Assembly: GCA_965637545.1 (NCBI GenBank)
Contig: OZ281497.1
Coordinates: forward strand, 29,884,001 to 29,948,000
Direction of reading: 5' to 3'
DNA: 64,000 bases
DNA from: Phallusia mammillata
Taxonomy: Eukaryota
The notes below the pieces were generated by a model that saw nothing but the letters and a program-made list of their open reading frames with translations, did not search any database and was not told the origin of the DNA. Every line of letters starts with the position of its first letter. The stretch's first letter is position 1. Of the stretch, positions 1 through 64,000 are shown in pieces. The position numbers and the translations under genes were made by a program.

Positions 1-1220
1 AAGCGTAGAATATTGTGTGCAAATTTCAGTATCGTATCTTTTTTAGTTTTAGCGTAAAGCGATTGGGCGCGGGATTCTCTCTGGTCGCTTTTGGGGTGTT
101 TAAATTCAAACGGTTAACCTTCCCAGGAAAAGAGATCACGAGTGAAGCATCAACTGTTTTACAAATGAGCGGTTAATACAGAGCATTTGGTCTCTGTTTT
201 GCTTTACGCATGGGCAGAAATTTTGCTAAGCAGTCTTTACCGTGATTAGAAATCAGCTGTTCTAGCGCAGTAATGTTATGTGATTTATCAAGTTAGCATG
301 CGCAATTTTCCTTTCGTAATGACAGAAACGAATTTTGTAAATGCATGGGGCAGCGTTCTCATAGATAAGTTTTAGAAATCTACACTTGTGTTTTAAACAC
401 TACGTTAAAGGTTTGGCTTGCTACAGTACAGCGCGACTCGATGAGGTTGGTTAGCAGGCAGTAAGTAAAATGAGAAAACTGTTTCACGCGTAAACAGCAG
501 AAATTTCGTGAAAAACATAACGCTGTATTAATGCTTTACTCGTTAGTTATGTTTCGATGCAATGGGCAAAGATTATCTCACAGCTGATAGCGTCTTATTT
601 TGTTTCACCAAGTTATTATCGTCTTTGATGCCTGCATTTGTTCATTGACAGCTGCAGAAACCAAGCTTTTTAATTTCGCTCTTTATTACGTTGCGCTCTT
701 AAAATAGTTTCCAGGAAAATATTTTATTTCTCCATCAATTTTGCGACTGTTTAAATATGTTCTGCTGGGCGTGTCCCGTTCGTGGAGCACTAAACTAAAG
801 ACTCCGCTGTCAAAAACAATTTTTGTAAATTTGTTTCCAGTTCTACGAAACTTTTCTTGCTCTTATTTCCGAGTTCATAACAAATCCTGTCTGGTCCTTA
901 AACACCTGCTTTGTATTGTAATTCGCTTTAAACCAATGACACCTGACGAAAGCGGATTCGACGCTCTTTATTACAAAGCAATTAGTTTGACCTAGCTTAA
1001 ACATTCCCTTATTTGAGAGCAACTGACCTAAAACGAAAAAACCCGAGAAGGTTCGATGGCAAAGATAAGCGCAATATGTTGCGTTCCTTTGATAGTTTGA
1101 CTTCAGTACTTACCAAGCACCACAACATCCTAATGTCTAAACCAGTGAGTGCTTGCCAAACTTTTTTTGAAATGGTTCACCCTTTGAACCTTTACTTGGA
1201 ACTTGTACACACCCGTCATA

Positions 1221-1697
1221 AAGATGAACATTAATTCATAACTGGGTTCAGCCCTGGAGCGTCGATGCAGACCAGCGATCACGGCACACTCATGTATGAA
1301 TCACAGTACTACAGGCCCATTAAAGGCGTCATACCGAATCAGTCCGTCACCAAGCATTCACCACCATATGGCAAGGCGTATGCTAGAAAAATCTAGCCTG
1401 CAGTGGGATTCAAACCCACGACAGGAATCTTTCCGGGACTTGCGCTCTACCAAATGAGCTACGCAGGCTCAGTGGAGAATCCGCCGAAAGTCGAATCGCA
1501 AGCACCGTTGCCTGCCTCCTATGCTGCACATGTCAGGTTCGTAGTAGGGGATCGCCAGTATCAGTGAAGATGAACATTAATTCATAACTGGGATAAGCCC
1601 TGAAGCGTCGATGCAGCCTATGCCTTGCCATATGGTGAATGCTTGGTGACCGACTGATTGGGTATGACGCCTTTAATGGGCCTGGCGTACTGTGATT
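1221..1697 (-). repeat. tRNA-headed ~346-bp repeat, copy 1 (about 1.15 units plus an inverted arm)
   Basis: AAGATGAACATTAATTCATAACTGGG recurs at 1221 and 1567; 1619-1697 is the reverse complement of ~1299-1380; homologous to 10861-11279 and 63894-64000. Confidence 0.88.
1395..1468 (-). ncRNA. tRNA-derived Pol III head (degenerate), not a canonical tRNA
   Basis: Acceptor stem GCCTGCG/TGCAGGC, A box TAGCTCATTTGGTAGAGC, B box GGTTTGAATCC; poorly paired anticodon arm. Confidence 0.75.
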
Positions 1698-4600
1698 GAC
1701 CAGTCAAAAATGTATTCATACACCGAGTTAGACTTAACAAGGCTATGGATGAACACTATGTAAATCATTTAACATTTGTTTTGTGGCAAATAATTTAGTG
1801 AAAACTGCAAGTTATAATTCACTTTATACCGCAAAAAGAATCATTTTCAATGAATATCAAGAGAAACATAGAGTTTTGATGACAAAAATAGAACATAGTA
1901 ACTTACAAACTGCATATACTTGAGATAGATGTTGTACCATGTACTGTACACTCGAGTTAGCCTACTCCAGAAGGTAAACATATTGCAATACCTGGTTGTA
2001 GATGAATTGTACTATTGAATCTGGGTCACCCTAATACACTCCATTAAAGTTGTACACCCATTATAAATTATTGTACACCCTTGAAACCCTTTTATTTTAT
2101 TCACATGTTTTAATAATATTAATGACATCGTAATGTTAGATATGCCATTACCCATGCTTGACATGCTTTTTTCAATCTTGAAAAAAATGTAGTAATCAAT
2201 CTTAACTATAATCATGCTGAAATGATAATATGCATCAAAGCGCTTGGTTCAGTTAGGGTATAATCGAAAGTGCTTGGAAGTTTGGTTTTCATTGGCCGTC
2301 TAAGTTATATTTTGTAAACCCTGTGCCGTCAAAGGATCACACGGTCAATGTGTACCAGTGTTATTTCGTGAAAAGGAGTTTTGTGTAGTCGATTTTTGCA
2401 TAAGAGACCGAATAATGAGCATTTGTTACCAAAATCTACTTGCTGGATGGCAGCTGTAGGAAAAACAAGCAAAGTTAAAAATTAGTGAATGTTGAGGCAA
2501 AGTTGGTTTGAATTCAACAACAGCGATTTGTTGATGGTTTAGTCTTCTGGTTTTTAATTCAACGACCACTGCTTTTGTTTTTATTTCGCCACTTGTTTCA
2601 ATCCAACGAAAAAAAATTTCTTCACGCAGCGAATGTATTTTGTCGATGATTTTACGACGCTGTTTTATTGTATTTGCCTCGATCGAGGCGAGGCGAATGT
2701 CAAACTTCATTTTACAGTTCATGGAACTTTGTCTTACTTGTTTTCATCGAACACATACTATGCCCGTATTTGAGGGTTCATTTTCTGAAGTTCTTTTGTC
2801 CAACGCAGACACATCCAACGCAGTTTTCTGTTTAAACTTTTTCAAACTTACGATTGTTAGCTATCTGAAGTTGATCATTCCAAGTATATATTCCGGATTA
2901 CCCGGCGGTGTATCTACAGGTTTCCTAAACACGTTTTTTAAACGGTCATGATTACCAACGTATATGATTCAGAAGCTTCATAGTTTGTTGGTTATTGCAT
3001 TTTAAAATGTATATTAAAGCATTTTGTAACGTTTTGTTGGATTCAACTTTTTTGCAGCTCCGTTTTTCCAAGAATTCTTTTGGGTTTAAGTCCAACCAAC
3101 AATGCCTAATGTGTTAAAATTTTAAACCGTTGTTTGTAGGCGTTTTTATCCTGTAGCTGCCGAAACCAAGCTAGTTTATTTCGCGTTTTATTACGTTGCG
3201 CTCTTAAACTACTTTTCCGTGAAAGATTTATTACTTTATCAATTTTACGACTGTGTAAATATGATCGGTCGTTTGTCCCGTTCGTCGAGCAAGGTAACTA
3301 AACCACCGCCGCTGTCAAAAACAAGTCTTGCAAATGTGTTCGCAATCATTGAACTTTTACTTGCTCTTATTTTCTGATTCTTAACAAGTCCGATCTGGTC
3401 CCTCAATGTTGACACACCAACTTTGCGTTGTATTCCTCTTTAAACCATTGACACCTAGCGTAAGCGCTTTCGACGCACCGTATTACTAAACTACCGAAAA
3501 TTGTAAAGCAATTTAGATTAAGATAGATTAATCGGAGCACAGTTTAAAAAGCGCATTTGTGATAGGGGTGTTTTTAATAACCGATGCGTGTTTTCAATAC
3601 AAAGCCCGAAATCTGACAGGTGTAAAGTTAGGCGTGAATCAAGCCAGCTTTATTGTCATATAACCCCCAACATGACATAAAAACCCGGCCCGACTTAGAA
3701 CTCTTGTTGACCAGCACTGTAACAAATCAAAATTACAGTTTACATGTTGATTGCTTAACCGACCTTAGCCTCAGTTGTAGTTTGCAATAAATCAATTTTG
3801 CAAAAGCAATTCATAAAAATGTAAAATGTAAAGTGTGACGGAAATATTTGTCCAGAGAAGACAGTGACATCCTTCATAAGCGAATTTGGAATCACAAAGT
3901 CTTGTGGCTTTTCGCGCGCTTTTTATATTCTATTTATGGTAACGTGCTTTTAAAACCCGTCAGGACTTATCAGTGACTTTATGACGATGTGATGGGTTTT
4001 GCTGCCTAGTGTTTGCTTCGTTCGGGGATCACATCGCGACCGTGTATGGAGAATAATGCTAACATATATTATAATAACCAAGACTGTTTGCTAATTTTAA
4101 AGCAACTGACCTAGAAAGCGACTTTCCAAACACCTTTGATGGCAAAGGTACTTGCAATTTGTGTCGATTATTGGTAATAAACTGTATTTTTCTGTTTTGT
4201 GTAAGTTTTCCGGTTCTTAGCTATAAAAACACGCTGTGTCGTAATGTAGTCGGTATGAATGACTTAATACATAACACATTCCAACACACGTTTCTAACAA
4301 CTTATATTTATTGTCAGGACATTACTTGGCCAAATGCGACAGCAAGGACTTTAGCTGCACTTACCATGGTCGACAGCAAGACCTGATCTGCCCTTCTACT
4401 TCTGCATGGTCCAGTTTCTCTGTGTTGGTCAAGAATAAGAGTGGTGAGTTATTTAATTTGCTAAAGCAGTAACAGCGTGTTATTTTACGTTCCTTTATTT
4501 GACGTTACCAAACACCGGAATGTCTAAGCTTAAGTCGTGTACGTAGGACAGAAATGCCATTCAAAAACTTGTTAATAAACAGCAGGTTGTATAAACATGT

Positions 4601-7600
4601 AGGAAAACCTTTCTAGTTTTGTCAGATTTTTCAATAAAGCTAATGTCAATGACACTGTAGTGTCTTATTTAACGTAAACAACAACATTAGATATGTCTTT
4701 ACACATGCTTTTTTATTCTCGGAACAAATCGTAATAATCAATCTTAACTATAATCACCAGCATTCATTCCTAGGTGAGGTATATTTTGCGCTTAGTTGAT
4801 TCGGACGTGCTTGGAAGTTTTTTTTGTAAACACTATGCCGCCACAGTATGACCCGGGCGGTGTTTAACAGCTTTTATGTTTGTTTCGCTACTTGTTTCAA
4901 CCCAATTATTGTCATCTATCACGTCACCAATGTGGTCATTAAAAACTGCTTTGGGCTAATCTAATTTTTAAATCGACGAGGCCTAATTTGATCGCAGCAG
5001 ATACCGCTTTGCCTAAATTTAGTCTTGTTGGTTTTCCACTGCAAAGTGGTGTTAACAGTTTTGTCAGGAAGCGACTGTTTTCGGTGGTTTTACGACGCTG
5101 TTTTATTGTGTTTGCCTCGATCGAGGACCGATACCTTATATGGCGATGCTAAAGCCAAACTCCATTTTACAGGTCAATGAACTTTGTCTTACTTGATTTC
5201 ATCGAACCAATTCAATACCTGTATTCATGTGTCCCTTTTCTGAAGTTAAAATTTACGCACATGATTGTTAGCTGTTTAAAGCTGATCCCTCCAATGTTTA
5301 ACCTCGAATGAGCCAACGGTTCATCCACAGGTTTCCCAAACTCTATTTCTTTGAAACATATTGATGTTACCAATGCACATGATCCAGGAGTTTTATAGTT
5401 TGTTGGTTGGTGCAAGTATTTTAAAGGATTTTGTAACTCTATGTTTGATTTGCCCGTTTTTTTAATGCTAATTTTAAACGTTTACTAAACCTCCCCATGC
5501 CACAGAAGTCGCAAGGGAGAGATTTAGTGCTTTATGATTCTGGCTTGCTTCACTCATGGACAGAAATTTTACCAAGAAGTCTTTACCGTGATCAGAAATC
5601 AGCTGTTTTAGCGCAGGAATGTTATATTATTTATCAAGTTAGCATGCGCATGTTTACCTACGCAATGACAGGAAACGAAGTTTTTAAAAGCATGGGGCAC
5701 CGTTGCCATTGATAAGTTTTTAGAAACTAAAACTTTTTTAAACCTTAAGGTAAAGGTTTTGCTTGTGATTGTGTGGCGAGACTCGGTGAGGTTAGTTGAC
5801 AGTCAGTAAGTAAATGTTTGCTGAATAGAAATAAGGCTATATTTATGTAGCGTTAGCTTTACTTGTTAGTTATGTTTCGATGCAATAGGCAAAGATTGTC
5901 TCACAGCATATAGTTGTTTCACCAAGTTATTATCGTAATTGATCACCTGCATTTGTTCATTGGGTTACTGCAGAAACCAGGCTATTAAGTTCCCATTTTC
6001 TTACGATCTAAAAACAGTTTTCAGAAAAAGATTTTACTACATCATTAATTTTACGACTGTGTAAATATGTTCTGCTGTGTGTGACCCGTTTGTGGAGCAC
6101 AAGGTAATTAGGAACGCCGCTGACAAAAAATTCTTGGAAATTTGTTATCATGTTAAACTTTTTCTTGCTCTTATTTTCGGGTTCTTAACAAGACCAATCT
6201 GGTCCCTTAATGTTAAAACACCAACATCGAAATGTATTCCGCTCCTGATGTGAGCGCATTCGACGTATTGTATTACAAAACTATCGAAAAGTGTAAAGCA
6301 ATTTGGATTAAGACAGATTAACCGGAGCAAAGTTTGTATAGCGCATTTGTTATACAGGTGCTTTTATTAAGCTTGATATTTTTCCTAAAGTTGTCGGAGG
6401 GTCCGAAATTAGGCATAAACTCAAATGTACAAGCCTGAAACTTGGACTTAACCCGTTGGTTTCGTTCGTTAACATCGCAATCTCGGCGCTGGCTTAAGAT
6501 CTCGACAATCTCATGATAATTGACTGGTCGGTTGCAGACGCATTTATATGTACAATATAAATTCTGCTTGGCAAAATATTTTATTGTCCCGCGTGTGTAA
6601 TTCATTGGGAGATAATTTTCCGAATGGGTCTAACCACTTACATTGGTTGACAGGACAGACCAACCTGCGCTTACCAAGTGCAGCATCGAGACCTGATCTG
6701 CCCATCTACTTCTCCATTGTCCAGTTTCTCAGTGCTTGTCTAAAAGGTTGGTCTGCTTTTTCGTTGCTAATGCTGTTAAGCGTGTTCCAAGCTCACGTCG
6801 TGTGCGCATAACAGTAATGCAACTTAAATCTATGTCAGAAAGTGCTTGAAAGGCTCATTTTCTCTTTCTAGATTTTTCAAAAACTACGCCGTCAAAGTAT
6901 CATAAGGGTTCCATAAACGTTCTTTTGTAAAAAGAGTTATTTCGGGGTAAGGGTATTTGTATTTTGGTGTTGCATCGGTGCTTTCAGTGAGATCCCTGCT
7001 GAAACTAAAAGTAAACCGTAACCATATACAATGCGAAATTTGTACAAAGTATTAACCGCATATAGACGGTAATAATAAACATGCAAATGTAAAACATGAG
7101 CAATAAATATTTCCTTAACTGATTTTGACAAGTGTACGGCGCATGTTAGTAACTCCTAATTTTTATAGGACCGTATTTTGCTCACAGACCCTTCTGTCCA
7201 GAGACGGAAGCCCTAATAATGCAAACGTGCCAATACCTATTGATTAACTTTAAGATTCTACAACTGTGTTTTACAAGTTGAAGGTTTAACCCACGCCGCA
7301 ACGCGTTAAAGGTGTGTTGACAGGCAGTAAGTAAAATGCGATCGCTGCTTACGCTTACACAGCAGAAGTTGAATAAAATAAAGTTATGTAGCATTAGCTT
7401 CCACAAATACAAATTCCCAATGGACTGCAATTTTAAACATTTGTTTGTTTGTTGTTGCTTCTTTCTTATTTAAAATTTTAGCTCATTTGGGCTTGTGTAG
7501 TGGTTCTCAAAGTTTTTATCATGTTCCTCCGTTACATGCTAAAATATTATCACATCTCCCTGGGTGCAAACCTGTTTGATTGACATGTGATAGCCCGGCC

Positions 7601-9099
7601 CGACACCTCTGCTTTACCATCACTGTAACTTAAACACAGTAAAAATGCAAATTGCTTAACCGATCTTAGCCTCAGTTATAGTTCACAACGAATAGTTTTT
7701 GCGACAGATTGGATGAAAATGTTGTTTGTTCTGGATAAATTATTTGTCTATTGAAGGCAGCAACATTGTTTTTTTTGTTTGTTTTTCTTGTTGATTCAAA
7801 TAAAAATTTAGAATCGTGAAGTCGAGTTTGCACCATCTTGTTATCGCTATTTTTTGCGTTGGTGTTTGCAATTCGTCGCTTTATAAGAAATTCTTCTTGC
7901 TGGATATGTCATTATCCTGGTGAAGGCCCCTTGTATAGGATGTGGAAACGTCGATTATTTATAATAAAACTGCTGGGTGAGCAATTCTCGGTTTTTAATG
8001 GCCATGTTAGAAATTTATTGACTTTTGATAATGTAACGCGTTAATCCGCCTTGATTTTGTTTGTGACTTTACCACAATACGTTGATAGGATTTTGCCTGA
8101 TAGTGTTTGCCTCGTAGTGAACACTGTGACCGTAAATGGCGGTGCCAAGCACCATGCCCTCGTTTATTCTCCTGTTCACCTGTCCGTGACTTGCTTGTTT
8201 GCTTCCACAAAATATAAGTGGCAAATACGTCTGAAAAGTGTGTCGTAATGAAATTTGTATGGCGTGCATCCCAAGCCAAAATATTTACATAACATAAGTT
8301 CCTAGTAACTACTAGAGACGCATCGAATCGGTCTAATTGGGTTCAGAGCGCCACTCGTTGATAACCCTTCATATATCATGATTAAAGTAATTTTTTTAAC
8401 CTCTTTGTAACAGGACACCCAAGTGTTACTATATAGAAGGGCACAATTCCTGACCGACCCCTGGCATTTTTCCTGGTGGAATTTTTTCTTGGCCAGCACT
8501 TATTGGCAACAACGGTGAGTTTTGTATTTATCTTCGTGAGATTAGTTAGAAAGGGAAACCTTGAAATATTTTCAGGCATACGATATCCACTTTTTGGTAA
8601 ATACTAATATTTTTATTTTAAGAATACTTCTAAGGAAGAAAATTGCTGTAGGAATATCTGGCTCTTCAGAGTTTTTGCATTTTCACGACTAAGTTATGCA
8701 GTAAACTTCTGTACTTGTTCTGCAGGCCAAGTCATCTGGAAAACACAATCCTGAAGCACAGATGCCGACCGGACAAATGAGCCGTTGGATTGCGACATGA
8801 AACCCCACAAACTGTCTGACTGCAAACTCTGTGATCTTGGTTGAGTGTTTGGATGCAAGGTACGTTTTAAGTCGTTTAATCTGCAATATTACACAAGCAT
8901 TACACAGTTGCGATGTTTGCAAAATGTGATTACAATGTGTGACTATGGTGGTTTTTGTTGCTGCCTTCAATCTGCGACAAAACGCAAACCACTTTCAGCC
9001 GATTTTAGTTGTTTGTGAACTGTCGCAAAATAATTTTCCGGGGGGTACTAAATTTGTTTAGCGAAAAGAAAACCGGCAGAAAAAAGTAATACATTTATT

Positions 9100-9660
9100 A
9101 CACAACAGCAACTGCGTGTCTAACAAATCTGTCGTTGAAATGGTGTATTGCTAAACAAATACAGTTGGTAATTGAGAACTTGTGTTTTAGCTAACGCTTC
9201 GTCCACCAGAACGGTAGGGCTTCTTCAGGGCAATGAATGATATATTGCGAGCACACAAGCGAAAATGCACAAGCGCAGCGGGATAAATCGAGAAATAATT
9301 ACACAAAGGCTTTCCGTGAAAGATTGCGTGTGCTACATTATGACGGTGCGTAACTAGTGTCCGACATTTGATAAGGAAGTGGAACGCAAAATATAACGAA
9401 AAACCGGGCTTAGGCTTTTGCCGTCATTGCGATTTAGAACACTAGAATTTGAATTTATAAGGCAACTTTCAAAAACTAACCTTTTAGACCAATTGGGTTC
9501 TCGTTTCAAAATTCTGGCATCGTTTTAATTAATGTGGTGGTCGCATTCCAAAACGTGTTCACATAAGGAGGACTTTTTATTTTCCATATTTTTAACAGCC
9601 ACTTGGTGCTCTTGAGGCGTGTATTGAAATTCCGCTCGGCTTGTCCAAGGTGCCTGGTAA
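9100..9660 (-). mobile_element. Penelope-like element 3' fragment (degenerate GIY-YIG endonuclease end and terminal region)
   Basis: Broken frames: LGQAERNFNTRL / EHQVAVKNMENKKSSLCEHVLECDHHIN*NDARILKREPNWSKRLVFESCLIN; terminal CTGAAGA...GAAGCGTT hammerhead-like remnant at 9190-9232. Confidence 0.8.
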
Positions 9661-10860
9661 ACTAACAATTGAGTGTGTGTAAAACACATGTGTTTTCGGA
9701 AACCAATCAAAATTGAGCAAAGCTTTTGTTAAACCTCTATTTTATTTGTGGGAATGTAATAATAATGGCAGGTAATTCAAAGTGACCAAGCCAACGCAAT
9801 TGTTAGCAATCGTCTGTTAAACTTGTTTTATCCGCCCTGAGTACTAGTTTGTTTTAGCGCTATTCCTACTTAGGCTTCCTTATGTTAAATACAACTTTGG
9901 GCGAGACTTATGCCTACCTTTTAAAAAGCTTTAATGATAAGTTCGATAATCTTTGTTAAAACTAAAGTTGTGCGTAGTTTGTTGTTGTTCATTTCACACA
10001 AGAAAACAGTTGTGATGGAGACCATAGTCCAATCTTTAAACGCGGGTAGATGGTGGAACGCGGGTAGATGGTGGAACGCGGGTTAAGTTTGCTGTTGTTC
10101 AGATTCTTCAATTGTGATTAAATGCATCCGCTGCTGGTGTTGTTGGCTGGTGCCATAGCGTTTCTAAAATAATCTTTGGTTACAAGAACTATTTTGTGAA
10201 CAATTGGGTCAACTTAACTAGTTGTGCTAGTTTGTTGACTTCCGTGCCTCAAATATCTGGGAAATTTGTAGTTAACACTGAACGAACGTTCCATACACGT
10301 CCCTCATTTAATAAAGTGCTTAGTCCAACTGGTGAAATTTATGCAAATTAGTCGACCTTTATTCCTTTAACACACAAGAAACTCCAATGAATCAAAGTGT
10401 AACAGATTGGTATTGTCAGAATTTTTAATGTGCTAATGTATGGCCTGAAAGTACAATATAATTTCAGAACATTTAATTTAGAATTCACTACTGTATTTTT
10501 ACTTATTGACAAAGATCTATACGTTTTGAATGTTTCGTGACGTGACGTCACATAATGCACCAGTTGATTTGATCGGGACAACAGTAATAATATACGGTGC
10601 TATTTAATGCTATAGATTTACACTCCACATATTAGTTCAACACAGAAACAATACGTTTACCCTTGGCTAGACTTAGACAACTAGATTTTTTTCGATTTTT
10701 TAAATTAGATTAAAAGAGCACCTCAATTTAAGACTGATATTGTGTCAGCCAAAAGTCCGTCGCTCTGAATTGATAATTCATCGTTAATAAGTAAATTTTG
10801 GAGCTTTTCATAATTGGAAGACAATATCGGGTTTTTGAATTTCTTGGCAAGAAAAACTGT

Positions 10861-11279
10861 ACACAGTACGCCAGGCCTATTAAAGGCATTATACCGAATC
10901 AGCTGGTCTCCCAAGCATTCACATATGGCAAGGCATAGGCTAGAAAAATCTAGCCTGCGGTGGGATTCGAACCCACGACAGGAGTCTTTCCGGTACTCGC
11001 GCTCTACCAACTGAGCTACACAGGCTCAGTGGAGAAGCCGCCGAAAGTCGGATCACAATCACCGTTGCCTGCCTGGTATGCTGCACATGTCCGCTTCGTA
11101 GTAGGGGATCGCCAGTCCGTATCAAGCAGCTAAGATGAATATTTTCATACTGGGATCAGCCCTGAAGCATCGATTCAGACCTGCGATCACGGCATACTTA
11201 TCGATAATACACAGTACGCCAGGCCTATTAAAGGCATTATACCGAATCAGCTGGTCTCCCAAGCATTCACATATGGCAA
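10861..11279 (-). repeat. tRNA-headed 348-bp repeat, copy 2 (about 1.2 units, identical 71-bp terminal redundancy)
   Basis: ACACAGTACGCCAGG...CACATATGGCAA is identical at 10861 and 11209. Confidence 0.9.
10952..11025 (-). ncRNA. tRNA-derived Pol III head with intact A/B boxes followed by T5
   Basis: GCCTGTG TAGCTCAGTTGGTAGAGC ... GTGGGTTCGAATCCCAC CGCAGGCT AGATTTTT; the anticodon arm has only 4 bp and a 9-nt loop without U33. Confidence 0.8.
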
Positions 11280-15369: not shown

Positions 15370-15790
15370 AAACAATAATCGTCGATACAATGAAGTCATC
15401 TTGAGTAACGTATGATGATGCTTTGTGGTGGACTTTAAAAGTTCTGATTTGTGGATTCGGTAAACAAAGAAAAAAAAGAATTAAACGCAAGCACGTCACA
15501 ACGCAACGAAAACACCGCGCGTTAACGAATGATTGGGCCTCTAATTTTTTAAGCAGGTGCCTGTAGCACGCTGAAAGCATCACGTCTGTTTTGAAGTTCA
15601 TTGTGTTGCCCCGGGTGAATATTCCATGACTCAAAAAATAGTCTGTTCCTGTAATCAGGCTCCCGGGCCACAACAGACGTCGCATTAAAATCAATACGGT
15701 GGTCCAGTGATACCTCGTGGTTGGAATCGGCCGACTTCTTCGCGTCGCTGTTGGCAACATCCCATTGGTGTTCTTTAAGAGTTTAGAATT
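15370..15790 (-). mobile_element. Penelope-like element 3' fragment
   Basis: KEHQWDVANSDAKKSADSNHEVSLDHRIDFNATSVVAREPDYRNRLFFESWNI, typical of the PLE GIY-YIG C-terminus; related to 54648-55230. Confidence 0.75.
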
Positions 15791-17305
15791 GTAATGACGC
15801 CACAAACACAAATGATAAAAATAATTAAAATCCTCACTTTTACGTTTATGGCTAAGTGATAGATTGTGGGTGTGCACAAAAACGAACTTTTATCGATCCA
15901 CAATAAAAGGTGAAATCAACAAAACCATCTATCCATCACATTGAAGGTGCAATCGACTTTCTTCAGTCTAATGTGTGTTTTTTGCCTGCCAAGCCACCCG
16001 AACGAAATTAAATATATCGCTGGTAAATGCTCATCTGGCTTTAAACATGCCTTAGTTAACGATGTACTAATACAGAAGTCGTCCTGATCCAGATTCTATT
16101 TGAATAAGGACTGACGATGCCATATATTTGGGCGAATGCGATTTTCGAAAGGTTTTGCAATAAGAAGTACACAGACTGATTAAAGTGTGTGCTGAATTTG
16201 TCAGCTCATTAATGCTTTAGTTAGTGATAGCACACATACTAAAACGCAATGATGTCACTTAAATTATATTTTTATATGCAGACCTTATGACTTAAAGACG
16301 TTGAGAACGTTACAGACAATATTTGCTCTGGTGGGACATCTTGCGGCAAACGACTTTAAAGTGAGACACGAGCCGGGAACGAAGCACTCAAAAGCTGAGA
16401 ACCAGAACCAAGTATTTTATACTAGAACATTATAACAACTATAGACAAAAATGTGGACAAACCTATTTGGGATGGTGCTTTCTGATAATTTGTCGTATTG
16501 AATCTAAAATGATTCGAACCATGCTGTTACTATTTTCCACAAATGTTTTCGCAAAAAATTTCCCTAGTAGATCTAATGATAAGCATCGTTAAATAAGATG
16601 TTAAATATAAAATGGAAATTTATAGGAAAGTTACTTTCCAATTTTTTAACTGTTTCTTTCTACATTTTCCAGGCATGATTTTAGTTTAATTAAGTTTAAG
16701 TGTAACAAGAACTTTGGCTTAATTTCAGGACTTTTTGGGACTTCGATTAGAAAGTTATTGTTAAAACCAGACCTCGAGGGACTATTTTAACATTTTGCAT
16801 TTTGATTCGTCGGCACATGTTTGGCTTGCGCATCACAAATAACTGCAATCTTTTTTTTGATTTTGCAGATAAACGTTTTAATCTAGTGTCATTGCCACAA
16901 AATATAACTAGTTAAGTTGATGTACACGTTCCTTTCGTGACTGGAAAACATTTGTACATGATTTCAAAACTTTACTTCATCAGGATATTTTCATAAGGTA
17001 AGCATCTGGCACTATGACCGGTTGCCCCTTATGCCTGAGAAACATCCTATGGTTTTGAGGCGGATCCCACCCTGCTTTGATAACTTGTTGGCTCCCGGAA
17101 AACATTAGTTGACTCACCAGAAAGTTGGCTTTAGAACGTTTACTCACCTTTTCCGTTACCACGCTTTATGTTAAAGCCAAATCTCGACAGTTACGCATCA
17201 GTAAGTTTTCGACGGCTACGCATCTTTACCTGCCGAACCCGTGAGATCGCCCAAGAACTTTTCACCAAACTGAAGACTGTGAGATCTGTTGATTTCGGTC
17301 TACAT

Positions 17306-19884: not shown

Positions 19885-22800
19885 GTAAGAATTGTACAAA
19901 ATCATACCGTTTACTACTTCAAATCTTCTTTTTGTACAGGAAAGCGAACAAGCACCTCAGATTGGAGACACAAACATTCACACAACTGGATCAGTTTACA
20001 ACGCTCCAGTCTATCAACAACACATCACACAACATGTAACGGTGTATCAGACATACGAACAAGCTCATTGCTCGTCTCAGTTGCCTGCTCCACACCATTT
20101 AGATGAAGAAACTGCACCCAAACTCCCTACTACGGCCCACTCTTCCGAACAAGCTCATTGCTTGTCACAGTTGCCTGCTTCACACCATTTAGATAAAGAA
20201 ACTACACCCAAACTCCCTACTACGGCCCACTCATTCCAACAACCTCACTGCTCGTCTCAGTTACCTGCTCCACATGACTTTGGTGAAGAAAGGCTATCCA
20301 AACTCCCTCCTGCATCTCCCTCAACCAGGCCAAGGCAAACATCTTCTGAACATCAAACTTCCACATCAACGCAACAATACACTCAACCAAAAGTGGCTGC
20401 AACCAATCTTCGTACAACTGGATTTTCTACACTTTTTTCATTCTTACGTAAACTAAGGTGCTGATTTTTTTCTACTAATTGTCGCACTTCAAATTGTTTA
20501 TTTTACCATATTAAATTAGAAGTACAATAAGCACCAAGTGTTATTGTAAACACTAACTTAACTTTATTGTAATGTTTATGTAGGCAAAACCCCAAACGAA
20601 ATCTTAAGACTTTGCTTAAAGAGAGAACAGAAGCCATCGCCGATGAACAACCGTCGCTAGCGGATTTCACTAAACGGAAAATAACTCCTGTCAACCTTGC
20701 CATAGTGGACAAACCACAGAAAATTGATAACGAGTTTCAAGCAGAAGGACATTATCGCAGCAGAAAGGAACTTGCCAAGGTTTACAACATACAACAAAGT
20801 GACATCACTGGTGAAGAAATGTTTGGTCGTGCAAAAGAAACAGCACAACAAGAAGCGGAATGGAAATTCAAAATAAATGAGAAAAAAGCAAAACAAGATT
20901 ATGTTGAAAAACATGGAAGCGTGGTCGGTGTGGTTGGACAAGCTGGAATAGGAAAGACAACTTCAGCCAAAAAGTGGGCCATGCAAGGTTTAAGGGGAAA
21001 GTTGTTCGGTAAGATTTCCTACTTCTTCTACATTGTGATCAGGCATATCGACTTCACAAGGAAAATGACACTTCTTCAGTTTCTTCTCTCATCAATGTCG
21101 ATTGAACCAGATTACACCCCAGAACAAGAAAAAAGCATTATCAACGCTATCTGCAATGATCCAAATGTTGTGATGATTTTCGACGGTTTCGACGAGGCAG
21201 CTTTTCAATCATTTTCGAAACAAGTTCCCCAACCCCGACTGCATTCGAAATACAAGGCGGAAAACTACCTTAAACATTTGGCGGGAGGAAACTTGCTTCC
21301 ACGTGCTCGGAAGATTTTCACGTCACGACCAACTCAGCTATACAAGCTCCATCCTTCATATCGACCCAGGTTCATCGTTCAAATACTTGGATTGACCCAA
21401 ACATCACAAGATGAACTTGGACTTCAGATATGCGGAGATAGATACGGCGATATACAACAAAAGCTAGAGCAAAACCGCAATGTATTTGCATACTGTTATG
21501 TTCCAGTCAATTTTATATTGACACTTGTCTACTTGATGAATTACGATGGAGATATGCAGGTTGTTTCCCTCACTCGAGTCCTTGCTTTTACTTGTGGCCA
21601 ATATACAAGGACAGAACATCTGAAAGGCGAAGATCGTCAGTTGAACACATTGGCAAAATTGGCATATGATGCATTTCTAAAGATGGAGATCGTATTCAAG
21701 GCAATGGCATTCGAGCAAGCAGGCATCAAGGAATCCACAGCCGATGCATTTACAAACACGTCAGTCACAAAGCACGGGAATTTCAAGCTGACGATATTGG
21801 ATGGTGACAAAGTTCGATACTTCTCTCATCTCATTTGGCAAGAATTTTTTGCTGGTTTCTACCTGATGATGATCATGTCCCTTGACGAGTTTGAAAAAAT
21901 CCTCAAACAACTTTCAGACGACAGATGGGAAGTTGTTTCCAAGTTTGTTTTCGGAATTTGCGATTCTTCGGTTTTCAATCAACTCGAGCCACTTGTTCCT
22001 GAAAGTTCCTTTGATATTTGGAAGCAAAAGAAATCTTTGCTTTTGAAATTCATCCAGTTCAAGCCGAAGCTCAGCAATGACGGAGAAATCTTGCAGGTTT
22101 GTAGCTGGGCTCATGAGTCAAATGATCCGGAGATTGCTTCATCCGTGGCCTCCCTACTTCCTGATCAGCTCGACTTTCGTGGTTCATCTCTCCTCCCAGT
22201 TGACTACGAAAGCCTTTTGTTCGTGATTCAACACAGAGCGAAACCGGTAATACTGTGTTATTGTGAAGTGTGCGTTAAACTAGTTGCTGAGAAACAATGT
22301 AAAATTATTCTACAACAAAACACTTTACCTACATGTTTTTATCACGTTAAATTGTAAGCAAACCTATTTGCTGTTTTTTTGTTTTCTAATTTTCAAAATT
22401 AAAGACTTACTTTCAGTCAGACCTGTTCACAATTATGTGGAGATCACAGAACCTAACTCGGTCAGTACCAGCGTGGCACGGTCACAACAAACAGGGTTTA
22501 AACTGTAAACAACCTTAGACCAGGGGCGGTTCGTGCGAGGGGGCTGCTGAGCTGCAGCGCCCCCTAGATATTTTTACTTAATATAATATTAATGATATTC
22601 CTAAATAATATTCCAATATTACGGATAACTGTCAAAAAAAATTTATGTTATCTATGGTGGAGCTGCAGCTCCAGTTTCGTGGCGTTTCATGACTTTTTCA
22701 GTTGTGCGCATGCGCACTTGGAAAACTACATGCCGGGCGAAAGAGGCGAGAGGGGGCTGTGGCTCGCGCAGCACCTCCCGTGACGTAGCGCTAGTTGTGT

Positions 22801-54647: not shown

Positions 54648-55230
54648 CTAGGTGTTGTATAATAAATATACTCCCGCTAATATATATCGGGGAGACTGGA
54701 AGGTCGCTCAACCACCGACGAAAAGAACATCAACCGGTTGTTGAAAACAACGAAGCGAAGAAATCGGCCCCTTCGAATCACAAGACCACCATATTGATTT
54801 CAGTGGGGCGTCTGTTATGGCCCCTGACTACATGATAGGGGATAAAACAGGGACAACACAATGAACATCAAAACAGATGTGGTCAGTGCCGGAATAACCA
54901 CAAGGTAAAGTAGGCACGTGCCTACAGGCCAGTCAAAAATCCAGGCCACTTCTTTGTAACAATGATTTGGCAACACTGATAATTCTATTTTTATAGTCGA
55001 CAACCCTGATTTTCGAGCCACTTCTAAATGTGCCTACAGGCCAGCAGACCCTTAATCCTGCACTGAATGTGGTGCCTTCAGCATTACAGGCACCTACTCA
55101 AAGATTAGAGGCCCAATCATTCGTTATCACACCGTGCTTGCGTTTCATCCTTTTTTCCCTTTGTTTCACTGTACTAATCGCATTCACTGTAATTTACCCT
55201 GATAAGACGTTGAAACGTCGGTATAAACAC
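54648..55230 (+). mobile_element. Penelope-like element 3' fragment
   Basis: GVVY*...YIGETGRSLNHRRKEHQ...KKSA...HHIDF; ends with a minimal hammerhead-like motif at 55195-55223. Confidence 0.8.
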
Positions 55231-58200
55231 AATTGCCAGTAGAGCTCTTCAAGGTTGGTATTATGCTTGGCAGCAACAGCTTACATATTGTCTGTATTTA
55301 TAAGCTCTATATTATACCAAATTGCTACCTGTGTGTTACAAAAACATAGGTAGGCTAATTGTGGTTTATTGTTGCAATAGAAGTTTGTCAATTGTATTCA
55401 CCAATAGCACATTCAGTTGCTGGTGCAGTCGGTTGCGTTTTACTCCCACTTCAGTGAAAGCAAACTCCATGCATTTGAACAAGAATAAAGCTGGAACAAA
55501 GGTTTAAGCAACATGCTGCAACAGTTTTTGTTACTAAAGTAAGTTCATGAGTTAGATTTTTGTGAATAATGTCTTTTTAAAACCGATAATTGTTTAAAAT
55601 GGATATTTGCTGACCAATTTAGGGATTTTCCGGTTTAGTAACCTATACCTCTAAACTATTTAGTTTTTAAGATTTTTGTTCATTTTATGCTTGCATGATA
55701 TCGAGCTTCGAGCATTCAACAAATGTTTGAAATTCCGCCGAAAATTGTTTGATATTATTGTTAGTGATGTACTTTTGGTTCCACTTCGTTAACATCTTAA
55801 ATATTTTTAGTTGAAACTTTTTGTGTTTAAATCACGTGAAGACATCAGGTTTTTCATAGGAGCGAGATTCGTGATACAAAACGGGGTCGCATTTTACAAT
55901 CACGCGCTGTTGCCTCATTTGCATACAAGTTTTGCCGCTTGGTGGAGACAAAGTGCAGTTTTACCAGTTCTGCAACTTTGCCGTGTGCGCTGAACGGGCT
56001 CGATCCATGCGGGAAAAAACTGACCGAGATTTGGTTTCACGGGATTTTTAAATCAAACCACGTTGAGATTATGTTTCAAACACAACGCAGTTGGCAGAGA
56101 TGCATTTCAATTTAACTGCTGACAGTGCACGATGTTTTAACATTTGTGTTTACATCAGTGCAGCTGGTGACAAGACATTGGACAAAACATTGTGCACTGC
56201 AGCTATCTTATCCTTGTTATTGCCCATCGATTTATACTTATCACAGAGTTTGTGTAAAATCGATCGACCACAGGACAAACTCGAAACTTTATTTGTCGAT
56301 ACTTTAACTCTCCCATTGTTGCTCATTTTGAACTTTAACCTTGCTGCGCGGTGTTGCGTGCAGTTGTGGAACTTATATCCCTTTTGTATGCTACAAATTT
56401 ATGATGAGCGTGCATAAATGACACGGCCGATAAAGTTAAGATACCCATCTTACACCATATATATTTACAATTCTACATCGTGTTAATTTCAAAATTTCCT
56501 ACATATTGTATGAGTGACGTTATCGTTTGTCGAAATAAATTCTGCAGGGTAAATATGTGAAAGTATAAACAAAACGTTGTCAGTCTGTGGTTCGATTGGT
56601 TCTCAACCTGTTAATTGTTATCAACCCGAAATGGGTAGTTTGACATTTTTCAGGGGTAACTACATCTTAATGAGTAAAATGACGGCCCAATTAGACCAAT
56701 GAGCGACATGCTACAGTATATTTAGGCCATTGTTTTTCTCATTAAACTTATGGTCAGATGTGTAATATTCTAACTACATATTATCGTATTTTATTTTCGT
56801 GACGTTTTGCTCCTGAGTTTAAACTCCGACTTTTCCAGTACGGGCCGAGTTCGAGCTTAATTCGGGCTTGACTTCACACTCGGCGTCATTTGTGTCGTAT
56901 ATTTACTATTTCGATGGAAAAGGCAATTCGGGCCTTGTATTTTCTTTATAATTTGGGTTCAGGTTAGCCTTCAGATCAATTGTAAAGTTATTAGCTATTG
57001 CCGCGAGAAGAAATGGGCGTTAAGCTTTCATATCACGCTCTCTTTAGACTCATGTTGTTGTTTTGGTGAATTTGAGTTAATGCATTACCTTGCAGCACGC
57101 AGGGAAACTCCGTCTATTAATATATCAGGTCTGTGCGACTGAAATCGATTGATGGCTCCACATCGAAAGTTTGCGAATTCCCAAACAATCGCCGACTCAC
57201 TACGCGCCCTCGATCAATAGAGATGACGCGTTTCCTGACAGGAAATATTGGCTTGGACTAATTAGGGTTGTCTACAGTGGAAAGTTTTTAAGGAAGTTAA
57301 CCTAAGATGACCAGGTTTCAGGCTTGCTGGATGACAAGTGAGTTTCTGTTGATTTCGAGGGAAATTATCTGATGCGCTTATTTATTAACCACAAATAACA
57401 CAAGTAACACTGAATATCTATACACCACTTACGTTGTTACACCCAATCGCGTTTTGCGCCCCTCGCTTCTCCAACGAGATCCCCAATTTCTCTGCCACGT
57501 GTTATTTGTAAATAGTCTTAAGGGTGCGGCTGCTGCGTGTTTTGTTGTTGTCTCCAATTTATCTCACACTGGCGTAATATTAACCACAAGGTTTTTGCAG
57601 CTGTTTTTCGATTCTGTGGCACTAGTGTAGTGTTTCTGTACTGTTATGAACCATTTTTATGTCCATGTTTTTCAATTAATACAATACAATAGTTCAATCA
57701 CAATGCGTCAGGTCCATTGAAGGCGCCATTAACGAATTAACACAATACAATACGTTACTTTCATGTTTCACAGCTGAAAAGTTTGCGCTTACATCACCAC
57801 GCATGTAAATCTGTTTCGATAGTAAACAAATAAAAGTTAAATTGTCCGGGTGGCGCAATTATGTTTGTAATGTGTAAGTGTGATGTCATTTTTGCAATAG
57901 GCGCTAGGTGTTTCATGCATGGCTTTTTAGGGTTTGGTTTGGGTGACCGCTATGTAGTTTTAAGAGACCGCAAGTCTTTCATTTAAATACCAAAAAAAAC
58001 AAGTCCAAATTTTGGGAAACCGCTGAAGAAATTTGAAACGGTCCCTCAAAACACCTTAAAAAGCACTGGTTTCATGTATGCTGTGTTTACAACACAAAAC
58101 CGAGTTCCAAACTTACGAGTCAAACGCTGCTGCTTTCATCAGACGTGAAAACTCACCATAAAGTGTCGCTGTGTTTTCTAGCGATAGTGACGTATCGCGG

Positions 58201-63350: not shown

Positions 63351-63893
63351 TTGAGGTACTGATGTTAAAAGAAAAACTGTTTTGTTTATTTCTCAACAAA
63401 CCGTTGCAAACACGCTTTACTTCTGGTTAACACCTCACACACGCCAACTAGATTCAAGATTTTTTATTAAGAGGGATTTTATGCAGCCGTGCCACAACGC
63501 AGCTTTTTTTACTTGGTAACAGAATGTCGGTGTTTTGTAAAAGTGGTGACTTTAACTAGCTTTAAGTTATAAAGTTCGCTTCTAAAGCAACCTAATTGTC
63601 GTAATGATGGTCATTTTGAGATGTTAAAAATACTTTTTTTCTTGTGGCTTTGTAGTTAAAAAGAATATCTATAACCGCGATTTTGTGTGTGAAGCGTTTT
63701 CATTTTGGGGATTTTAAATTACCAATGCAAAATTATTGCCATGAATTAAATTCAAAAAACTTGTTGCCATTTCCGTTTTAAATCCGATTAGCACCGTTAC
63801 AAGTTTGCACAAGCACATGTTTGGGTACACATGGGTTCCAGTTGCAGAAAATATCCACTGTATAAAATGCACACAAGTAGTAGCGATGTGAAT

Positions 63894-64000
63894 AAATCAT
63901 AGTACTGCAGGCCTATTAAAGGCGTTATAACGAATCAGTCGGTTACCATGCATTCCCATATATGGCAAGGTATAGGCTAGAAAAATCTAACTTGTGGTAG
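63894..64000 (-). repeat. tRNA-headed repeat, copy 3 (cut by the window end)
   Basis: AGTACTGCAGGCCTATTAAAGGCG...ATGGCAAGGTATAGGCTAGAAAAATCTA matches the same unit. Confidence 0.8.

Follow-up and report, generated by a model that had tools for sequence, protein, structure and literature searches.

Penelope-like elements (PLEs) are marked by insertions with inverted, 5′-truncated arms and a tail on one end only (PMC8557442, PMC3846280). Reactions performed in vitro with a Poseidon PLE are reported to cut both strands and to initiate complementary DNA (cDNA) at two positions within the RNA, which set the tail, with no need for the hammerhead ribozyme (PMC11167929). Here we analyzed a dispersed repeat that carries a tRNA-like module and is present in a 64,000-nt stretch of Phallusia mammillata DNA (assembly GCA_965637545.1, contig OZ281497.1, positions 29,884,001 to 29,948,000; hereafter the window). 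Since its insertions resemble those of Neptune-type PLEs of the same genome, with which it also shares a predicted RNA stem, the repeat is, judged from sequence, very probably a non-autonomous PLE, likely copied and inserted by the reverse transcriptase (RT)-endonuclease of Neptune-type PLEs. It is not a retrozyme by definition, and it is not an ordinary short interspersed nuclear element (SINE). These results support in part an earlier reading of the window (the original prediction) as containing a non-autonomous element that came from multi-unit or circular RNA by a Penelope-type route and was neither an ordinary SINE nor a satellite.

Several described systems share features with this repeat. 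Non-autonomous PLEs (MRC1 and other non-autonomous Chlamys; PMC8557442) are likewise non-coding, form partial tandems, lack a canonical hammerhead and are PLE-dependent, with a 3′ end resembling that of the partner. The repeat differs from them in its likely Neptune-type partner, in containing a tRNA-like module, and in a resemblance that is structural for the most part. Animal retrozymes without long terminal repeats (non-LTR retrozymes; PMC7229834, bioRxiv 10.64898/2026.07.22.740005) are similar in their tandem units of ~350 nt, long target duplications and proposed PLE origin, but by definition contain a type I hammerhead in each unit, and none was found in the repeat; the term "tRNA" has 0 occurrences in the retrozyme preprint (bioRxiv 10.64898/2026.07.22.740005). 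The Schistosoma Sm-alpha repeat (PMC6765202) also has a polymerase III promoter inside a tandem unit, such that transcription of a whole unit needs more than one unit. However, Sm-alpha has an active hammerhead, whereas the repeat has none but contains a T5 hairpin after the tRNA and has two-site Penelope ends. Helenus and Cassandra (TRIMp3; PMC10886601) also place a small-RNA-derived polymerase III promoter in a terminally redundant non-autonomous element, and transcription of Cassandra begins within one copy of the promoter and terminates in the following one; unlike the repeat, these elements use the machinery of LTR retrotransposons, with a primer binding site, a polypurine tract, 4-5 bp duplications and fixed ends. 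Earlier literature thus covers non-autonomous PLEs, the derivation of retrozymes from PLEs, and hammerhead-bearing polymerase III repeats. Full-text literature searches returned no tRNA-bearing, hammerhead-less PLE parasite and no stem of the kind described below, within the texts they covered; either may stand in Repbase, Dfam, SINEBase or supplements.

Insertion ends of the repeat family

The unit is 348-355 bp long, and positions are counted from the tRNA start, in tRNA sense (minus strand of the window), on the natural 355-bp unit of locus L071. Copies mostly end 3′ at a proximal site A (positions 160-180) or a distal site B (238-261). Exact searches of the 240 Mb genome gave 603 matches for a 17-mer at positions 71-87 and at least 1,129 for a 17-mer at site A, and a gapped tail pattern gave 777 matches; the reversed control gave 0 in each case. 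Placement was dispersed among the first 100 matches listed for each of the three pattern searches, and DNA searches of the genome returned 4,076 and 5,107 first-look candidates. A search for long arrays, proposed together with the original prediction, found at most 4.05 units among the best 40 of the 5,107 candidates, ranked for a trimer. Long head-to-tail arrays were absent from these 40, and therefore the family is, as far as scored, no satellite. The window contains the following copies and parts of copies:

1218..1616, minus strand: copy 1, main arm; monomer 199-355 and then 1-251 (1.15 units), 3′ end at distal site B
1615..1697, plus strand: copy 1, inverted arm; monomer 85-170, 5′-to-5′ junction with the main arm, 3′ end at proximal site A
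1395..1468, minus strand: tRNA-like module of copy 1, read from the sequence by alignment to copy 2, with no ARAGORN call
10861..11279, minus strand: copy 2; monomer 95 to the end and then 1-167 (1.21 units), single arm, 3′ end at site A
10952..11025, minus strand: tRNA-like module of copy 2, with A and B boxes and a paired acceptor stem; Rfam tRNA 51.8 bits, also called by ARAGORN
10937..10956, minus strand: trailer hairpin of copy 2, overlapping the tRNA 3′ end, with T5 in the loop
11172..11259, minus strand: conserved stem, internal copy in copy 2 (outer helix, bulged U, GAU/AUC, inner helix), surrounding site A and shared with Neptune-type PLEs
11130..11134, minus strand: site B inside copy 2, internal, with no end of copy 2 there
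63892..64000, minus strand: copy 3; monomer 59-173 (0.32 unit), 3′ end at site A, extending 4 bases beyond the window
57690..57735, minus strand: old 45-bp remnant; monomer 132-176, ending at site A (nhmmer E 0.002)

Copies 1 and 2 had been described as terminally redundant insertions of 1.15-1.2 units, and this description holds: they span 1.15 and 1.21 units, and the redundancy is 50 nt at 94% identity in copy 1 and 72 nt, 100% identical, in copy 2. Alignment also bore out that homology runs round the circular unit. The tRNA head of the original prediction exists as a tRNA-like module, but lies on the minus strand and inside the unit rather than at its head. The account of copy 1 had the length right and overlooked the inverted second arm, while copy 3 is only a fragment of the unit without an A box, ending beyond the window. 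By eye, ~10 of 13 bases are alike in the flanks of copy 1, possibly a decayed target duplication; the match between the flanks of copy 2 is only 7 bp long.

For the survey of ends, 131 sequences from several searches and from the first 3 kb of the window gave 158 match groups. Removing 31 groups with less than 85% identity, 27 that were duplicates, 6 that lay at an edge or gap and 2 that were short left 92 insertions. The sample is biased in that one search favours long copies and the search with the site A 17-mer demands site A; the same two 3′ ends were found in the set picked by the pattern at positions 71-87, and 20 older copies picked by the tail pattern ended mostly at B or A. The length of 1.15-1.2 units proved not to be a family trait. 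Of the 92 insertions, 59 had no arm as long as 1 unit, 14 had a longest arm of 1-1.3 units and 19 had one above 1.3 units, such that the 33 insertions with an arm of at least 1 unit form partial tandems with terminal redundancy, in the manner of pseudo-LTRs (pLTRs).

Outer 3′ ends fell at site A or site B in 118 of 133 cases, although the two windows cover 13% of the unit. The sites lie ~80 nt apart, giving the repeat a tail of 78-81 nt. Single-arm insertions (n = 51) ended at A in 30 cases, at B in 14 and elsewhere in 7. An inverted second arm, joined 5′-to-5′, was present in 41 of the 92 insertions: 33 paired an A end with a B end, 1 had two A ends, none had two B ends, and 7 had one or both ends elsewhere. 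The A+B pairing (33/34, P = 2e-9) means that 33 of the 41 show the inverted 5′-truncated arm with a tail on one end only that is seen in non-autonomous PLEs. Exact flank repeats of at least 9 bp accompanied 37 of 92 insertions, versus 0.35% of shuffled flank pairs, with a mode of 13-14 bp.

In contrast to the 3′ ends, the 5′ ends were scattered over the unit with no wall anywhere, and those near the tRNA start (9 observed, 6.8 expected, P = 0.25) were not enriched. Plotting ends on the monomer, a check suggested with the original prediction, thus bears out permutation on one side: copies start mid-unit as claimed, but their 3′ ends are fixed at two sites. The family has the A/B-box module of a tRNA SINE, without a start at the tRNA 5′ end or a single tailed 3′ end; as a rule, neither end of the copies examined carried a poly(A) or simple-repeat tail. 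Nor does it have the two LTRs, fixed ends and 4-5 bp duplications of Helenus and other terminal-repeat retrotransposons in miniature.

Neptune-type elements as likely partner

Many PLE families with long open frames are present in this genome, among them Neptune-type frames of 959-973 aa at L228 and L231. One group carries a CX2-5CxxC linker before a C-terminal GIY-YIG domain (16/16 loci, versus 0/4 Poseidon-type loci), and its order of RT, linker and GIY-YIG is the layout of Neptune and Nematis (PMC8557442); taking both together, we refer to the group as Neptune-type. Inverted insertions of these elements paired one proximal with one distal end, 68-87 nt apart with a median of 79 (ends read by eye), and the target duplication was 12-16 bp in 15 of 17 pairs, with a mode of 13 bp compared to 13-14 bp for the repeat. 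The repeat matches the Neptune-type PLEs of its genome in inverted arms, one tailed end, a tail of ~79 nt and the duplication, whereas Poseidon-type tails measure ~30-35 nt. The Neptune-type elements encode RT and GIY-YIG, and they have a hammerhead 30-50 nt before a stem also found in the repeat, which has its tRNA module at that place.

To compare the tails, a profile was built from the last 128 nt of PLE tails with the repeat left out. The repeat segment ending at site B scored z 5.1 (0/400 shuffles, 11 sequences) against this profile and z 3.9 (1/1000) against a 14-family profile; with one family ~20 nt short the score was z 4.9 (0/1000), left-out true families scoring z 0.6-9.3. The best-scoring of 238 windows on both strands ended at site B. 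None of six Poseidon tails scored above z 0.7, and a Poseidon profile was a poor description of the repeat; a likeness of site A to the tail of one Poseidon-type family, noticed by eye, was ruled out by the profile control.

What the tails have in common is a single helix, composed of an outer stem, a bulged U, an invariant GAU/AUC, a U-G pair, a bulge and an inner stem; it was found in 11 PLE sequences and 3 repeat subfamilies, with site A inside its loop. RNAalifold predicted this stem unaided from a MAFFT alignment, with compensatory changes on both sides at 12 of 17 pairs, and 89.5% of cells pair in the stem register versus 29-52% in slid registers. Spacings from core to A, A to core and core to B were 37, 21 and 57-60 nt in the repeat, compared to PLE medians of 37, 20 and 59 nt. 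The repeat thus has 3′-end sequence or structure in common with autonomous PLEs at clade level, with structure contributing more to the likeness than plain sequence identity does.

A number of observations weigh against a Neptune-type partnership. No exact duplication of at least 9 bp was found at 55 of the 92 insertions, and duplication length is not clade-specific (12-13 bp in Poseidon-type elements). The exact partner family was not found among the PLE loci compared: blastn of the unit against 107 PLE loci detected no homology, matching only inserted copies and tRNAs, and pairwise family scores were weak (best z 4.5 for one family, at most 2.2 for the other 13). Hidden Markov models of whole pLTRs including the hammerhead miss the repeat (4/500; 320/2000), and 2 of 400 random window segments reach its tail profile score. 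Regarding the stem, the motifs were first spotted by eye, and segments were cut on GAT/ATC anchors, that is, on the invariant core, and therefore the pairing counts lean toward structure. Additionally, 4 families lacking the GAU/AUC core were excluded from the stem alignment, which contains two close relatives among its 11 PLE families.

Under Neptune-type mobilisation, the enzyme would recognise the predicted RNA stem common to the repeat and the PLEs, nick both target strands ~13 bp apart, and begin cDNA internally, for one strand in the stem loop (site A) and for the other ~60 nt beyond the stem (site B). A single-arm copy would result if one cDNA is completed and a head-to-head pair if both are, and copies would look permuted because copying starts mid-unit and proceeds upstream into the previous unit. 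How PLEs choose templates and place starts is known from one in vitro Poseidon study (PMC11167929). The repeat kept little of a pLTR beyond the covarying stem and two start sites, and may therefore mark the minimal cis signal for the Neptune type.

Three PLE remnants claimed for the window were confirmed by tblastn with Poseidon-type proteins:

9357-9680, minus strand: PLE remnant, with a decayed hammerhead-like pLTR downstream
15567-15779, minus strand: PLE remnant
54677-54820, plus strand: PLE remnant

The proposal of a Penelope RT is supported as to the type of enzyme, but the partner is likely of the Neptune type and not one of these Poseidon-type remnants. At 16106-16136 (plus strand) the window also contains a hammerhead-like sequence that matches a zinc-linker PLE profile (E 0.004) and resembles the L230/L254 family, likely a solo pLTR remnant.

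Several other PLE loci were recorded. Copies of one zinc-linker family lie within tRNA gene arrays (Leu/Met; Lys/Pro/Thr/Glu) at L168-L171 and L175 (G000:C4 7.39-8.33 Mb); PLE copies in such arrays are a possible route for a pLTR to gain a tRNA, which does not imply targeting. At L223 (G000:C8 5.58-5.60 Mb) at least 5 zinc-linker PLE copies stand in tandem at 3.3 kb spacing, four of them listed with 942-aa frames, and an inverted arm is present. A search with the hammerhead core and the repeat motif joined as one pattern found 1 decayed locus. L238 (G000:C1 33.63 Mb) has two adjoining decayed hammerhead-plus-motif units and is possibly a true retrozyme relic of the Neptune type. At L009, from 1906 onward, the end of a Poseidon-type PLE adjoins the repeat near site B in opposite orientation, and at L275 a repeat copy begins directly behind a Poseidon-type hammerhead.

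The tRNA-like module, the template and rival explanations

ARAGORN assigns the module of copy 2 the anticodon GGA and calls the repeats tRNA-Ser. Its A and B boxes match the consensus, and the acceptor stem was intact in 64 of 75 copies read. Identities to seven host tRNA genes ranged from 42 to 51 over 74 nt, with no clear best as source tRNA. The T5 in the trailer hairpin loop, 3 nt past the tRNA, is the only run of at least 4 T in the unit, though the T5 count is biased by the search pattern. In folding predictions an 81-nt RNA formed a cloverleaf, while from ~95 nt onward the trailer hairpin took over the 3′ acceptor strand, leaving an acceptor-stem probability of 0.00 with the trailer included (a thermodynamic prediction only). 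A polymerase III product that stopped at T5 would therefore be tRNA-like and a read-through product shielded from RNase P and Z, the acceptor stem being predicted to be hidden in RNA longer than ~90 nt. A variant tRNA-like sequence in contigs of putative RNA runs was rejected as a sister family, as it maps to one old genomic copy. Locus L279 (G000:C6 15.71 Mb) is one old copy with an altered anticodon arm, which also occurs in putative RNA runs from four studies, in contigs of 2.4-2.8 kb.

The absence of a hammerhead core, already noted in the original prediction, was confirmed by pattern search and by Rfam. CTGANGA was absent from both strands of the doubled consensus, as was any one-mismatch version followed by GAAA, and the proposed Rfam ribozyme scan of copy 2 and 7 multimer loci found no ribozyme family, tRNA being the sole match over threshold. 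A candidate decayed hammerhead at positions 85-115 was discarded (38-175 of 500 shuffles were as good; z at most 1.6), and the part of the unit corresponding to the PLE hammerhead did not fit a hammerhead profile.

To characterise the template, alleles at subfamily sites were compared in a survey of 54 young loci, in which comparisons within a locus are not independent. Tandem units carried the same minor allele in 38 of 41 comparisons (7 subfamily sites, 14 loci; null 0.13), whereas the two arms of one insertion agreed in 20 of 30 (Fisher P = 0.01). Homogeneous multimers occurred in each of several subfamilies. The shared alleles therefore suggest repeated copying of one unit as the origin of multimers, while two arms may sometimes stem from different RNAs. 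At L086, L284 and L105 the subfamily sites are not uniform across the two arms or units of an insertion, which hints that a single insertion can draw on two RNA molecules. Pieces of the repeat also occur in contigs of four putative RNA runs, many within longer unrelated contigs and without strand or ends, and were not used as evidence; run X17, labelled as a second organism, contains about half of the sampled repeat words.

Regarding the form of the template, we tentatively favour a linear polymerase III read-through transcript. It would start at one tRNA box, read through the first T5 and stop at the next, and would thus have a tRNA at both ends, allowing strand transfer. Against this, T5 right after the tRNA would halt polymerase III and there is no 5′ wall at the tRNA start, and therefore the simplest polymerase III model is weakened. 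A long host read-through RNA is a somewhat more doubtful candidate. Equally doubtful is a closed circle of ~355 nt that would form with no hammerhead and be reverse-transcribed in rolling-circle mode, which concerns the RNA form and is a sub-case of Penelope-type mobilisation. The alleles shared by units of one insertion and the lack of a 5′ wall anywhere on the unit fit a circle, as do the four units of L281, all of one rare haplotype, and the units of L008, which differ at 1 position in 347 nt compared to 7 differences from the nearest sampled relative; the size also fits animal retrozyme circles, with 353-nt examples described (PMC7229834). However, neither pattern search nor Rfam revealed a ribozyme to make monomers, the predicted fold of the unit is barely better than that of shuffled sequences (z -1.5), and private variants were shared between units in only 7 of 90 cases, a count that does not decide the matter. 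Moreover, a linear RNA that is terminally redundant, with a tRNA at both ends, would through strand transfer leave the DNA pattern that a circle predicts.

The original prediction had suggested cleavage by RNase P or Z at the tRNA fold, and monomers freed in this way might then be copied or ligated. The intact acceptor stems and the predicted cloverleaf would suit these enzymes, but the two 3′ end sites are 95 and 175 nt downstream of the tRNA with no pile-up at the tRNA itself, 5′ ends are not enriched at its start, and the acceptor stem is predicted to be displaced by the trailer, making this route improbable. Two internal RT start sites explain the ends, and therefore no RNA cutting is needed. 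An ordinary tRNA SINE moved by a long interspersed nuclear element (LINE), with twin-priming inversions and occasional tandems, would account for the A and B boxes and the target duplications, and 5′ truncation and inversion occur with LINEs too. This explanation is very improbable and largely refuted by the strict A+B pairing of two fixed ends; the missing tails, the arms that pass through the tRNA start into the preceding unit, and the stem shared with PLEs (in a survey of PLE 3′ ends of the genome) also argue against it. Least credible of all is that the copies are scattered pieces of satellite DNA or belong to a miniature LTR element like Helenus. Tandem units exist, and Helenus LTRs carry tRNA-like sequence (PMC10886601), but the arrays scored are short, the matches listed are dispersed, and Helenus is described with fixed LTR ends and 4-5 bp duplications.

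Returning to a Penelope-dependent repeat, we tentatively propose a SINE-like class with a Penelope partner, in which a tRNA promoter and a fold switch would have replaced the pLTR hammerhead and one unit-length RNA (circular or terminally redundant) would be copied repeatedly. The bulged GAU/AUC stem would then be the RNA signal by which Neptune-type, telomerase-related RTs choose the template and place the two start sites. The abundance of the family, with its 5,107 first-look candidates, suggests that a Penelope parasite can succeed without a hammerhead, and the data further suggest that tRNA-promoter elements can use Penelope enzymes, besides LINEs and LTR elements. Retrozyme screens that demand a hammerhead would overlook such elements, and tRNA gene counts are inflated by them.

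Other features of the window

An open frame of 594 aa at 20573-22357 (plus strand) encodes a NACHT domain and is an NLR-like gene; a 90-bp tandem coding repeat lies ahead of it at 20056-20308. Between 26200 and 43600 the window contains several large direct repeats with a spacing of 2.9-5.7 kb, which suggests a tandem gene cluster.

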